From a virus (Duplodnaviria; Heunggongvirae; Uroviricota; Caudoviricetes): a DNA stretch of 64,000 bases. The position numbers are program-made. Where the stretch lies: IMG/VR virus record IMGVR_UViG_648028025_000010; one strand, 5' to 3'. Shown piece by piece: positions 52,601 to 58,600 of the stretch; the first letter of the stretch is position 1, and the number at the start of each line of letters is the position of its first letter.

Positions 52601-55600
52601 AGACCTGGAATAATCAGCAAAGGCAAAATTCACAAGGTAAGGAATGATCTGTAGCCGGGTTTCTTCACTCAATTTATTCAATGTCGGGTTATCCAGTGCC
52701 ATCGCGTAATTGAGCAGACCTTCAATCGCAAACTGAGGATCCTGAACACCAACTTTTGCCAGGAATAAAGCAAACCCAAGCGGTGCTTTTGACTGCACCA
52801 TCCCCTGCGCAGCCATCACATCCGTAATTGTTAAACCACCAGAGCCTGTCGCCGGTGCGTCATCGCTCAGTTTTGGAGATTTCGGGGAGTAATATTTCGG
52901 TAAGGCTTCAAGGTTCATGCTCGTTCTCCACTTACGCCAGTACGCCAATTGCCAGCGCACGATCGATAAAACGAAATATCAGCTCCAGCTGAGAGCCATA
53001 CTTCTCTTCAAATGCCACGGTATCCGCATGAAGCTCGTTGTGATGCTCCCGACACAGCGGTAGCGTGAAAATATCGTGAGATTTTGTCCCCATTCCGCCC
53101 TGACCATGACCAATCAGGTGATGGGGATCGTCGGCTGGCTTACCACAACACGCACACGGCTGTGTCTTTACCCAGCGTGTGTATTTCTCATTTACCCAGC
53201 GGCGACGTTTAGGTCGTTTCATGAAGGATTCCGGAGACTCCGGATCAACGGCAATGCTGACCACCGTCTTTTCCTGTGGTGGGTTCTGTTGCTGGTGGGT
53301 GTGAGACGGTAGCGCAATATTTTTTGTGCGCTGCTTCAGTATGCTGGTGGCGGTCTGTTCTCCCGGTATGATGTCGCTTTCACGGTATACGGAGCGGATT
53401 TTTTCCGCACGCAACCCCAGCGAACGACGTAATACCGCTTCCGGTAGCGCGTCCGCCACCTGATTGCGGACCGCCCACCAGGATAATTCAGCCAGCGATA
53501 ATTCCCGTTCCTGTATGCCATTCATTGCGTGGCGGATGACGTCAATCATCCATGCTGACAGGTTTTGTTGAGCAAGTTGCTCGAGTGATTCTGATGTCTG
53601 GTCGCGCAGCTGGTTGTCACAGTGCCAGCACAACACCATCGCGCCGGTACCATAACGGTGAATGACTGTTTCGCTGTGATGATAATCGCCGTGTGGCCAC
53701 TGGCAGGATTTCACGTGACGTAATAACCAGTCAGACAGTGCACCTGCACCACCTGCTGCACGAATAACCCGCTCATCGCTGAAAAATGGCAGTAATGTTT
53801 TATCCTCTGCCAGCGGCTGGCGAACGGCAGGAACGACTCCGGACGGCAGACCGCGCATGTTTTTCGGTTCCGGCTCCACCAATATTCTGCCGTTATGGAA
53901 TACTGACATTGATTCACGGCCTGGCTTAACGATAACCAGACCGAGTTCCGGTACCAGAACAGGTCGAAGTAATACCCGCACGTTACCTCCAGATGCGCTG
54001 CTGGAATGTGCGGGACGGACGCGGTGGGCGTTCGGAATAAGGGAGCCTGGCGGAGATTATCCAGTGACGACGATCGAAGCTGAGATCTTTCTGAAACTCG
54101 TAACCACGCCTGCGGTAACACTGGATCAGCCATTCGGCCTGTTCTTCAGTGCATAGGGGATGCTGGAACCAGTCGGTTTTAAATACGTGCGAACACCGTC
54201 CTTGCCTACTGGCAAGGGCGGCAGAATTGTGCAATCTGCTATCGTGCGCCATCGGGATCTCCGGTGGCACGGTGTTTCTCAGCGACGGTTCAAGTCAGCC
54301 TGATTTTATAGCTGCTTCTGAATATCATCAACAGGTAATCCTGCCAACTCTCTTACCTCAGAAAGAAGAGAAAGGCTTACAACAACCTCATTACTTCGCA
54401 TAACAAAACCACATTGAAAAGAACCATCACTGTTTCTGTAAACAACAACCGGGCGCGTGCTCTCATAAAACCCCGGGATCAAACTGGCTGGGATTTTCAC
54501 AACACCTCCTGACGTAAAGGAAATGAAATGCATTATCGCTTCTCTCGGACTATAACCATGAAAAGAGACGCATTTCACTCAGTAAATCTGAGGATTTTAT
54601 GCGCAAGAACAATGACTTTTTCTGTCTGCCGTTTATACAATCTGAATTACGTCTGTTTTTTGAACACCGATAAATCAGCAAGCATTCTCAAATAAAGATT
54701 GCCTCCATAGTCCACATGGTGTAACACTATGTGTTATATAAAATGCAGAGGCAGGTATGCGAATTTTCAAAAACGCCTGGTTTGAACGTTTCGCTCGAAA
54801 ACATCGGATTTCCGATAAATCGCTGCGCAAAATCGTGGAGCAGGCCGATAAGGGGATCATATCCGCAAATTTGGGTAGTGGTGTCATTAAACAAAGATTA
54901 GCCCGAAGTGGTGGCGGAAAATCAGGCGGTTACCGGACAATAATTTTTTACCGCGTTGCAGAAAAAGCCTTTTTCATCTACGCATACGCAAAGAATGAAC
55001 GAGAGAATATCACTGCTATAGAGGAAAATGCTTTTCGAAAAGCCGCTCCCCATGTCCTCAATCTTACTGATGAACAGCTGGCACAATTGATTCAACAAGG
55101 CCAGTTCACGGAGGTACCCAATGAGTAAAAATTACCGCAGTGATGCACTTGCATCTGTACATGAAATGATGGAGTCACTCCATGATATCGGTGCAATCAC
55201 AAAACAAACTATGCGCGAATTCGATGAAACTTGTCTTCAGCCTGCGCCGGTAATGTCTCCGGAAAGGATCCGTGCACTGCGAGAACGAGAGCATCTGTCT
55301 CAACCTGTTTTTGCCAGATACCTCAACGTCAGTAAAAACCTGATATCAGACTGGGAACGAGGAGTGAAACGCCCGGGAGGTGCAGCTCTTCGGCTTCTTT
55401 CAGTTGTCGAGAAAAACGGGATCCAGGTAATATCCTGATATTCTAATACAACAAAACCCGCCGAAGCAGGTTAAGTGCGGGTGCGTTGAGGATGCCTGAC
55501 ACATCAGAGGTGGCGAGGGATTTCTCCCTCGCCAGGTCTCTTACTCCTCAGGTTCGTAAGCTGTGAAGACAGCGACCTCCGTCTGGCCGGTTCGGATTCG

Positions 55601-58600
55601 TACCTCGCAGAGGTCTTTCCTCGTTACCAGTGCCGTCACTATGACGGTTAAACAGATGACAATCAGGGCGATTAACATCGCCTTTTGCTGCTTCATAGCC
55701 TGCTTCTCCTTGCCTTTCGGCACGTAAGAGGCTAACCTACATGTGCAAAGCATGAAATTGGCCTCAGATTAATGTTAAGCGTCCTGCAAGACGCGTAATG
55801 TTAACTGGGGCTTTTCTCTGTCTGCCTTACGGCGGCATGCCCGAGGCAGACAGCCTCAAGCACCCGCAGCAATTCTACTTAACTCTTCTTTCCCCGCAAA
55901 TCATTTTATCCCCGATGGTAATGTTCTCCCGATATGGGAATTCCCATATCAAGGTTAACTCAATCGGTTAAAGCTCCATTAATTTTCCGGCCAGTTCATC
56001 TCGTGGCATTACCAGCCATCCGCGCGATTTAAGCAAAGCCAGGGCTTCTTCAACCGTCACCAGCTGGCCAGGCGCATAACTTCGGATGAAGGCGGTTTTA
56101 TCGTCACGGATCGCCAGGTGAAAATCGATATTCATTTTTCCCATAGCCCGCTCTTTCTCGTACTGGTTGAAGTAACTGTCTTCGAGTTTTTCGAATACTT
56201 CCCACGCCTGATCGGTTTCGAGCATTTTTGCATGACGGGCTGCTCCGCGTTCTGTCCAGAGGATGAGAGTGCGGGTTTTGGGAGAAATTTTCACCTCATT
56301 TTGCGACTCGTTTAAAACTAGTCGCAAATTTTTGAGCTCATCACCAACAGCTTTAAAGAAGTGTTTTCCCTCAATAAATCGAGATTTATTTTCATGGTGA
56401 TTCTGCTGTATACGGATTGCTTCTGTTCCGTAAAGGCGGGCGAGTAACTCAGTTGTGATTACAGGAATCTGGTTATAAGTGACAGGGGAAAGGTTTTTGA
56501 CAGTAACTTGAGTCGTCATGATAACGCCCTCTGGTTGATGAATTTAACTATCACCACCTTCAGGTCTCAATCATCAGGTGGCGAGACGTACAGGGTTGAG
56601 ACTACCGGATCAACCAACCGGCCAGCCTTTCGGCTGCCCCATACGCCTCACCATAATTCAGATGTGCGTGCGCATACGACAATAAAAAACACGCTCGCGG
56701 CGTGTGTCTGTCGCGGTTGAATATCCGGGGTCTCAATCCCGACGGTCAACTCGACCGTGCGGTGAATATAGCCCCGGATTAGTAATTACGTCAACCCCAG
56801 CGGCAAATCGAATAAACCACCAGCGCTACCGCCATTGCAACTCCTGCCGTTACGAATGCCTCAGGCCAGGTCATCGTAAACTATCCTCAGCGCCAATCAG
56901 TCCGTTTCGCTTCAGGCAGTCCATCGCTTTATACGGTAATTTGGCTGACAGGCGAAAATCACCCTGCAGCATCAGGCTTATTCCCTTATCCCGGGCTTTC
57001 GCTCTGACCGCTGCCTCGCTACGACCAATCAGACTGCCGATACTTTCGACAGTCATCGTTCCCGCGCACTGCCGGAGTATCAGAATTTCAGCCCGGCACC
57101 ACGTCTTCCACCCACTCACCGCTGCTGTTCTCTGGTGGCGGTAATATCCCGGAGAATATCCCGGCACTTGTTCAGCTCCCGCAGCGCGGCGCAGACTCGC
57201 TCCCACTTCTGAACCTGACCTTTTGCCCGGCGCAGCTCGCGGTTAGCCACATGCAGCGATGGTAAAATCAGCCCATCCGGATGCTTTCTGGTGAACGACG
57301 GCTGTGACTGCACTGTGACCGCCACACTTTCCGTTTTTATTTCTTCCTGTGTTTCCGCTTCCCGGACTGGTAACGCAACACATGCTGGCTGAGGAAAGGC
57401 TTTACCATCGGTTTCCGCTACGGATGCAGCTTCCGGCTCTGCCGGTAAATCAGCGCCCGGTATGCAGTAACGAAATTTACCGTTCTGATTTACGCGTGCC
57501 AGGCGCCCCGTTGCTGTTACGACCGCCAACGTGGAAGCAACCTTGCGAATGCTAACACCGAACTTATCCGCCAGTTCCTCACACGTTTTAGCCCCATCCT
57601 GACAGATAAACTCAATCATCATGTCCGCGGTAACTTTTTGTTCGACCTCCCCGGTCAGCACATCCGGTACTTCAGACTGTGCTGGCTGTTCTTCGGTTAC
57701 CCCGGATTCACCTTCACCAGCCAGAAACCAGGTGTGACCCGTTTTATCAACAACGCCATTTTTTTTGAGTTCCCACAGTTCGTTGAGAACTTCTTCACGG
57801 CTGATATCAAGCCGCGCCGCCAGTTCAACAGAATTGGCTTTACCCATCGTTTTCAGTGCATGCAATACGGTTTCCATTAAAACTTCCTCCGGATAAAAAT
57901 TACTTCTCAGTTCCTGTGCTGGCTGACGTTCGGACGCCAGCTCTCCCAGTTAAACGTCACCCAGCGACCACCGTTCATGGACATGCGGTCCATCACCCGC
58001 TCGCCGAGAAGTGTATTCATCGCTGCATGGTTAAGATTTGTCAGCATCCCCACACTGAGTAACGATGCCGTTCTGCGGTCAACAATCTGATTCAGCGTGA
58101 CCTGCTCATTACGCGTATCCCGTTGCATGCCAATTTCATCCAGTACCAGCAGGTCAACGCCACACAATCCCTGCAAAAATTTTTCGCCCGAGTTTTTGTT
58201 GTCGTAGCTGCCATGTAACGCCAGCATCACATCCGCCACTGTTATCACAATCACACTGCGACCTTTCGCCAGAAGGTGGTTGCCAATAGCCGCCGCCAGG
58301 TGGTTTTTTCCTGTGCCAGGCCTGCCACTGAAAACAAAATTCGTACAGCCGCCTTCCAGCTCTGCCGCAATGGATTTCGCCTGACTCAGGGCATGGCGCT
58401 GACCATCGTTCTGCACCCGGTAGTTACCGAACGTACACTTCCGGTGAAGCGGCTGGATACCGGAGCGGTTAATGATTTTTTCAACCCGCGTCTGATGATT
58501 CAGACGATTAACCTCCTCGCTTCGCTTACGCCCTTCAGCAAGCTGCCATTCCCGCCACTCCGTCACCGTACGGTACGGAGGGATTGCATCCTGCGGCACA

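Follow-up and report, generated by a model that had tools for sequence, protein, structure and literature searches.

The locus described here lies in a window of 64,000 nucleotides, the whole stretch of DNA that was analysed (IMG/VR virus record IMGVR_UViG_648028025_000010, Caudoviricetes), and comprises a type II toxin-antitoxin pair at 54757-55438 that converges on hok, the gene of a type I toxin. Positions 1-25000 of the window are 100% identical to Escherichia coli O26 str. RM8426 (NZ_CP028116.1), starting at 2155997, and positions 54300-56000 are 100% identical to the collinear part of that record. According to the annotation of NZ_CP028116.1, the region consists of two lambdoid prophages in tandem, which we refer to as A and B. 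Prophage A is defective and Qin-like, carrying cspF, ydfT, ydfU, rem, hokD, relE, relB, ydfV and flxA and, near 19.5 kb, an integrase gene disrupted by an insertion sequence (IS). Prophage B extends from ~19.7 kb past the end of the window and encodes nleC, tail, head and lysis genes, tRNAs, Q and DUF968, followed by the hok/toxin-antitoxin region. The NCBI pipeline names the genes within 54757-55696 as "type II toxin-antitoxin system RelE/ParE family toxin" (WP_001217944.1), "helix-turn-helix domain-containing protein" (WP_000042395.1) and hokD. The features of the prophage B locus are as follows.

54757-55128, plus strand: HigB2-type toxin of the RelE superfamily, 123 aa (PF06296, AlphaFold 2 model, Foldseek, active-site alignment).
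55121-55438, plus strand: HigA2-type antitoxin, 105 aa, with an N-terminal segment (residues 1-44) and an XRE helix-turn-helix (residues 45-99) (Pfam, match to Vibrio cholerae HigA2, pairing with the toxin).
54720-54738, plus strand: candidate operator (inverted repeat, read from the sequence).
55541-55696, minus strand: hok, 51 aa (PF01848, 81.7 bits), encoding the same protein as hokD of prophage A.
55691-55865, minus strand: 5' leader of the hok mRNA, complete and including the sok antisense region (Rfam RF01794, 117.3 bits; cut-off 59).
55455-55472, minus strand: hok terminator hairpin, with a T-run to 55443, conserved in prophage A.
54293-55452, no strand assigned: 1.16-kb cassette of prophage B (blastn break-points of A against B and against IMG/VR locus L088).
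54306-54578, minus strand: small hypothetical gene of the cassette (54306-54500, 64 aa, in the NCBI Prokaryotic Genome Annotation Pipeline; phrog_31309, function unknown).

The 123-aa protein matches Pfam family PF06296 with 161.3 bits (cut-off 27), its residues 1-120 covering profile positions 1-120 of 120. This was the only Pfam family found at E <= 0.01, with no match to PF09907 or PF05015, and searches of NCBIfam and PADLOC returned no match to the toxin. In the survey of Gerdes (2025; PMC11980606), PF06296 is the HigB2 family, which is toxin-first and acts by ribosome-dependent mRNA degradation. Among solved structures, the only significant relatives found by sequence search are the V. 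cholerae HigB2 (VcHigB2) entries, with E ~4e-4. An AlphaFold 2 model built on an alignment of 101 diverse relatives reached a predicted local distance difference test score (pLDDT) of 94.5 and a predicted template modelling score of 0.88. It took the place of an earlier AlphaFold model built on 30 close homologues (pLDDT 63.7, beta-sheet core below 50), which was discarded. When the model was compared with the PDB by Foldseek, all of the top 11 matches were VcHigB2 chains (probability 0.96-1.00, template modelling score 0.52-0.68, 105-110 aligned columns); the next match, Streptococcus pneumoniae HigB, had a far weaker score. The active site of VcHigB2 was assigned to R51, R64, Y82 and K84 by mutagenesis (Hadzi et al., PMC5416850), and these residues align in phmmer with R47, R60, Y77 and K79 of the toxin. 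Throughout the alignment of the 101 relatives, which reaches down to 36% identity, K45, R60 and K79 do not vary, and conservation of R47 is at least 90%. Two other identities were considered and rejected for the 123-aa protein. An Rts1-type HigB (PF09907/PF05015) was discarded on the Pfam result given above, and so was the Tad toxin of tad-ata, as Tad belongs to COG4679/DUF891 (PMC2701414) and not to PF06296.

The 105-aa protein encoded directly after the toxin has Pfam matches to HTH_3 and HTH_31, and its best match of solved structure is V. cholerae HigA2 (VcHigA2; E 6.7e-8, residues 45-99). The start of the antitoxin gene overlaps the stop of the toxin gene by 8 bp (ATGAGTAA), and a GGAGG motif is located 6 nt 5' of the antitoxin ATG. 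Residues 1-44 are conserved to the same degree as the helix-turn-helix (HTH) domain, as would be expected of a toxin-binding segment. Pairing of the two genes was followed in 80 loci (L005-L084) from GTDB species genomes of Gamma-, Beta- and Alphaproteobacteria, Acidobacteriota, one cyanobacterium, Verrucomicrobiia and Bdellovibrio. An antitoxin homologue directly follows the toxin in 77 of them, and the remaining three stop at a contig edge, so that all testable loci (77/77) retain the pair. The HigB-like toxin and XRE antitoxin in toxin-first order that a preliminary description, made from the sequence alone, had placed at 54757-55438 are thus supported by their Pfam family and fold, by the catalytic residues, by the homology of the antitoxin and by the conservation of the pair, and the structure prediction that it had suggested as a check has VcHigB2 as its top matches. 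In the same 80 loci, the antitoxin is better conserved than the toxin, with a median identity to the window protein of 70% (51-82%) versus 49-66% for the toxin. Antitoxins of type II modules usually diverge faster than their toxins, and the reverse pattern is unusual.

Upstream of the toxin gene, a perfect inverted repeat, TAACAC-TAT-GTGTTA, is present at 54722-54736 and may alternatively be read as TGTAACA-N5-TGTTATA. The candidate operator that it forms is located ~21 nt before the toxin ATG, and the palindrome overlaps an extended -10-like element (TGTTATATA, 54732-54740). The upstream regions of O26, O104:H4, a chicken isolate and phage PhiR12_3 have diverged and retain a single conserved block (TGTAACACTATGTGTTATA), ~21 nt 5' of the ATG. 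The palindrome is short and was missed by the repeat search; it was found by reading the sequence together with this four-way alignment. The footprinted operator of VcHigA2 is TGTACGC-N5-GCGTACA and reaches over the -10 element (PMC11006873), and the candidate operator shares with it both the 7-N5-7 geometry and the overlap with the -10 element.

The hok gene on the other side of the pair encodes the same 51-aa peptide as hokD of prophage A, as the preliminary description had reported, and the two open reading frames (ORFs) differ at one synonymous base. Both lie within a shared block of 258 bp (3448-3705 in A, 55453-55710 in B) with 98% identity and 5 mismatches (blastn, E 5e-126). In prophage B, an in-frame upstream ORF starts at 55753 (minus strand), a position annotated as mokW in phage VT2-Sakai, and the locus aligns over 96% of its length with mokW-hokW-sokW of that phage, at 91.7% identity. 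The hokW-sokW pair is a working type I system that aids release of Sp5 (Takada et al., PMC8621323). On these features, the hok/mok/sok genes of prophage B form an intact type I locus. The T-run of the hok terminator ends 5 nt from the stop codon of the antitoxin gene, and the plus strand has no T-run. Codon 47 of hok in both copies (55541-55696 and 3536-3691) is Tyr, TAC followed by G (GCT TAC GAA), and UACG is the recognition context of TadA. For the mRNAs of hokC, hokD and hokE, A-to-I editing by TadA is reported to recode a Tyr codon to Cys46 and to affect toxicity, and prophages are reported to show an enrichment of hok (10.1101/2025.08.07.668861).

The toxin-antitoxin pair and hok are convergent and separated by a gap of 102 bp, and the pair belongs to the 1.16-kb cassette at 54293-55452. 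Prophage A has no counterpart to this cassette and instead contains a 405-bp segment with rem (3043-3447). In 'empty' alleles of the cassette site, such as that of L088, the spacer is ~55-75 bp. The small gene of the cassette (54306-54578) had no match in Pfam, NCBIfam or PADLOC. The corresponding features of prophage A are as follows.

3068-3319, minus strand: rem, in the slot 3' of hok (gene calls, record annotation).
3536-3691, minus strand: hokD (relF), with its own Shine-Dalgarno sequence kept and its promoter, mok and sok lost.
3763-4050, minus strand: relE (TIGR02385, 54.7 bits).
4050-4289, minus strand: relB (NF008412, 133 bits; cut-off 96).
3706-7005, minus strand: 3.3-kb inserted block with relE, relB, ydfV, flxA, ydfW and a truncated ISEsa1 (record annotation, alignment).
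7006-7034, minus strand: 29-bp remnant of the hok leader (Shine-Dalgarno region), fused to the 3' end of the DUF977 gene (blastn E 4e-7, alignment).

Read in the orientation of hok, prophage B contains the replication genes, C4/isrK, the ORF6N antirepressor gene, the sok leader, hok, then the HigA2-like and HigB2-like genes (both on the opposite strand) and the hypothetical gene hyp64, followed by hyp95, DUF968 and Q. In the same orientation, prophage A contains DUF977, the block of truncated IS, ydfW, flxA, ydfV, relB and relE, then hok and rem, again followed by hyp95, DUF968 and Q. The relBE genes therefore precede hokD at its 5' side and share its strand, whereas the HigBA2-like pair follows hok at its 3' side, is encoded on the other strand and occupies the slot held by rem in prophage A. 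Because they occupy opposite sides of hok, in different orientations and with different break-points, the two modules are not allelic but appear to be independent insertions flanking a conserved 258-bp hok core. The stretch from the replication genes to the Q/nin genes has a mosaic make-up, with independent gain and loss of small toxin cassettes. Such mosaicism, with toxin-antitoxin cassettes as mobile accessory genes, is well established for lambdoid prophages.

The history of the prophage A module can be followed at its borders. Its relE and relB genes constitute a relBE(F) operon of the K-12 type and are annotated as such in NZ_CP028116.1; gene calls place relB-relE beside hokD at 3536-4289, in agreement with the preliminary description. 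A 16-bp direct repeat, AGGAGAAGCAGGCTAT (read on the minus strand, which is the hok strand), bounds the 3.3-kb block at 3690-3705 and 7006-7021. Homology of prophage A to prophage B ends 14 bp 5' of the hok ATG of prophage A (blastn), and an Rfam search for sok in prophage A (window 1-9000) found no match even at E <= 1. In IMG/VR locus L122 (560-700), an intact sok leader runs up to GGAGAAGCAGGCTAT and is followed by a block 99.3% identical to that of prophage A and then by hok. Because of the 16-bp repeat, the 29-bp leader remnant and L122, the relB-relE-hokD arrangement appears to have arisen by insertion of the 3.3-kb block at the hok start codon, which would have removed the promoter, mok and sok. 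L122 would represent the intermediate at the sequence level, in which the displaced sok leader is kept upstream of the block; prophage A would since have lost it. The relB, relE and relF/hokD genes are co-transcribed (PMC3598666).

Taken as a whole, we consider it very probable that 54757-55438 is a HigBA2-type operon carried by an accessory cassette beside an intact hok/mok/sok locus, and that relBE in prophage A is a separate insertion and not its allelic counterpart. By homology, the toxin (PF06296, RelE/BECR fold) would enter the ribosomal A site and cleave translated mRNA, with cleavage depending on R47, R60, Y77 (or the nearby Y75) and K79. The N-terminal segment of the antitoxin would fold onto the toxin and neutralise it, and a dimer of its C-terminal XRE domain may bind the palindrome at 54720-54738 over the -10 element and repress the operon. 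Loss of the labile antitoxin would then free the toxin. In prophage A, the arrival of relBE within the 3.3-kb block at the hok start codon would have produced the relB-relE-hokD operon and removed the control by sok. The 258-bp hok core is what the two prophages have in common, with unrelated cassettes probably inserted independently on either side.

The distribution of the modules was surveyed in two sets. Only one of 50,697 records of the phage collection matches the cassette (PhiR12_3, 79.7% identity, toxin truncated), which made that collection unusable as a survey, and complete E. coli genomes and IMG/VR hok loci were used instead. The viral set comprised 80 IMG/VR loci encoding the identical Hok; the native sok leader is present in 78 of these, relBE in two and the HigBA2-like pair in none. 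Of the 80 loci, 43 have nothing in the slot 3' of hok and 24 have rem there, and most of the others end too near hok to tell. In complete E. coli genomes, the HigBA2-like module was identified in 214 of 5426 (~4%), always on the chromosome, and its carriers are mostly Shiga toxin-producing E. coli (STEC) of serogroups O26, O145, O111 and O157. The order hyp64, toxin-antitoxin pair and hok is found in 168 of the 214 genomes, and the other 46 mostly carry variants of ~84% identity in other arrangements. At the level of the 753-bp module (54700-55452), 165 genomes are at least 99% identical. For comparison, relB-relE-hokD occurs in 1165 complete E. coli genomes. Among the other arrangements, a prophage of O104:H4 strain FDAARGOS_348 (L002 3024-5818) contains ORF6N, a truncated HigB2-like gene with the HigA2-like gene, a Doc-family toxin gene with a small upstream gene, and hokD, amounting to three toxin systems within 2.8 kb adjoining the ORF6N antirepressor gene. 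In the chicken isolate, the pair adjoins DUF968 and no hok is annotated nearby.

The stacking of the HigBA2-like pair, the Doc-family toxin with its small upstream gene and hok in the O104:H4 prophage would also fit a different selected role. In this explanation, the biochemistry is that of HigBA2, and the module is maintained for phage defence (abortive infection or superinfection exclusion) in a hotspot of toxin systems around hok, rather than for addiction or stability. Both proteins of the pair fall in PHROG families and so recur in phages, and toxins of the RelE/ParE superfamily have been reviewed as defence toxins (PMC11980606). However, PADLOC does not recognise the toxin, and a survey of Hok did not see hok enriched in the vicinity of defence systems (10.1101/2025.08.07.668861). 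We regard a defence role as possible but unlikely. A broader form of this idea makes the short hok core of lambdoid prophages the anchor of a hotspot that would receive toxin cassettes (HigBA2-like, Doc-type, RelBE, rem and others) time and again at its two flanks. All of them would cooperate as a prophage-borne island directed against phages or against curing, and convergent transcription into hok might add cross-talk. This broader form is speculative and in our judgement rather improbable.

Several observations weigh against the assignment of the pair as a HigBA2-type operon. The identity of the toxin to VcHigB2 is ~19-25%. At position 77 of the toxin, most relatives have Phe, and the equivalent of VcHigB2 Y82 is uncertain; since Y75 is invariant among close relatives, the catalytic tyrosine might be either Y77 or Y75. 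A consensus promoter scan called no promoter upstream of the toxin, and no experiment on the pair of 123-aa and 105-aa proteins was found in the literature searched. In at least 8 of 40 sampled genomes (H44, H46-H52), several of them STEC, the toxin gene is split into two coding sequences by a 1-bp length difference, and it is truncated in O104:H4 (L002 4141-4347) and PhiR12_3 (L003 4290-4544), where the antitoxin is intact. A split or truncated toxin beside an intact antitoxin is the expected pattern of toxin decay, and the module does decay in some lineages. These broken copies could point to a decaying, inactive remnant in RM8426 as well, with a silent or non-toxic toxin and an HTH protein that serves only as a regulator. 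Against this, the ORFs of the window are full length relative to the family profile, the conserved catalytic positions are all intact, and the 753-bp module is at least 99% identical in 165 genomes. A remnant in RM8426 is therefore quite improbable, and we retain the HigBA2-type operon as the reading of the pair in this strain.

The preliminary description had gone further and proposed that the type II partner was exchanged beside a conserved type I toxin, that is, a genuine swap of cassettes at one site, with one type II module taking the place of another. Part of this holds at a coarse scale, as the two modules are both found between the ydfU (DUF968)/Q block and the replication genes, with an identical hok no more than ~100 bp from each. 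At the scale of single genes, however, they lie on opposite sides of hok, with opposite orientation relative to it and different break-points; relBE is part of the 3.3-kb insertion bounded by the 16-bp repeat; and in prophage A rem is found where prophage B has the HigBA2-like pair. The hok loci themselves are not equivalent, with a complete mok/sok leader in B and no sok in A. The survey of this locus across lambdoid prophages, which had been proposed as a check, found neither module in 78 of the 80 identical-Hok contigs. Cassettes do come and go as units here, as had been suggested, but not by one-for-one replacement, and we consider a true swap very improbable. The least probable explanation, in our estimate one with hardly any claim, is a functional coupling in which read-through across the one-directional hok terminator produces RNA antisense to the 3' end of the hok mRNA, the type II operon thereby modulating the type I toxin: it would suit the convergent genes, their 102-bp gap and a hairpin (55455-55472) with a T-run on the hok strand only, but the pair and hok are not consistently neighbours (46 of the 214 genomes are otherwise arranged, for example with Doc between or no hok nearby) and nearly all hok loci of the same type lack a HigBA2-like module.

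Among known systems, V. cholerae HigB2/HigA2 (PDB 5JA8, 5JAA and 8A0X) shares with the window pair the Pfam family, the fold and the aligned Arg/Arg/Tyr/Lys residues. The likeness extends to the toxin-first operon, to an antitoxin of ~105 aa with an N-terminal segment (neutralising in VcHigA2) and a C-terminal XRE HTH, and to a single 7-N5-7 palindrome over the -10 element, the site in the window being a candidate. Differences are that the window toxin has 123 aa compared with ~110 aa in VcHigB2, with, in the model, a helix pair and a strand added at the C terminus; that the operator half-site is TGTAACA in the window and TGTACGC in Vibrio; and that the window pair is located in a lambdoid prophage, whereas VcHigBA2 is located in a superintegron. 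HigB/HigA of Proteus vulgaris Rts1 is similarly toxin-first, with an XRE-type antitoxin and a ribosome-dependent toxin of the RelE superfamily, but the toxin belongs to PF09907/PF05015 and the architecture of the antitoxin differs. Rts1 HigB was placed among the more distant relatives of VcHigB2 (Hadzi et al., PMC5416850).

The relB-relE-hokD operon of K-12 Qin is exactly the operon of prophage A and likewise places an mRNA interferase of the RelE superfamily beside the same Hok. It differs from the window pair in being antitoxin-first, with a ribbon-helix-helix antitoxin and a PF05016 toxin. It is also located upstream of hok and co-transcribed with it, replaces the sok/mok leader, and is not allelic with the HigBA2-like cassette. 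The hokW-sokW locus of the Stx2 phage Sp5/VT2-Sakai (PMC8621323) resembles that of prophage B in its lambdoid prophage setting and complete leader; unlike prophage B, the VT2-Sakai match has no adjacent HigBA2-like pair. The module is not a new kind of system but an uncharacterised member of a known, automatically annotated family in a known type of context. For a module that NCBI annotates generically, the analysis provides a precise family (HigBA2/PF06296) with testable residues and a candidate operator. It also provides a sequence record of how the textbook relB-relE-hokD operon originated, by probable insertion at the hok start codon, with the intermediate surviving in a viral contig.

Further observations concern the surroundings of the two loci. 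Next to the hok leader of prophage B, an ORF6N anti-repressor gene (phrog_2379) is present at 55968-56519 on the minus strand. A C4 antisense RNA (RF01695, 69 bits) and isrK (RF01394, 51 bits) were identified at 56574-56771 on the minus strand, 5' of this gene, and a c4-a1b1 target below threshold (RF03163, 27 bits; cut-off 46.7) was found in the same region and on the same strand. Together, C4/isrK and ORF6N beside the hok of prophage B look like an antisense-controlled antirepressor module similar to immI of P1/P7. Prophage B also carries a cargo gene, that of the type III effector NleC (nleC, 20345-21331, minus strand), at its tail-fibre end. In prophage A, the integrase gene is broken by IS600 and the excisionase gene by an element of the IS66 family (window ~14000-19600). 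The sister strain RM10386 also has the integrase gene of prophage B broken by IS600 (L001 23543-25701), and lacks prophage A at this site (L085), so that prophage B lies directly beside ydfJ. The tandem prophage array therefore differs between O26 strains, perhaps because IS600 copies, or the prophages themselves, recombined with one another.

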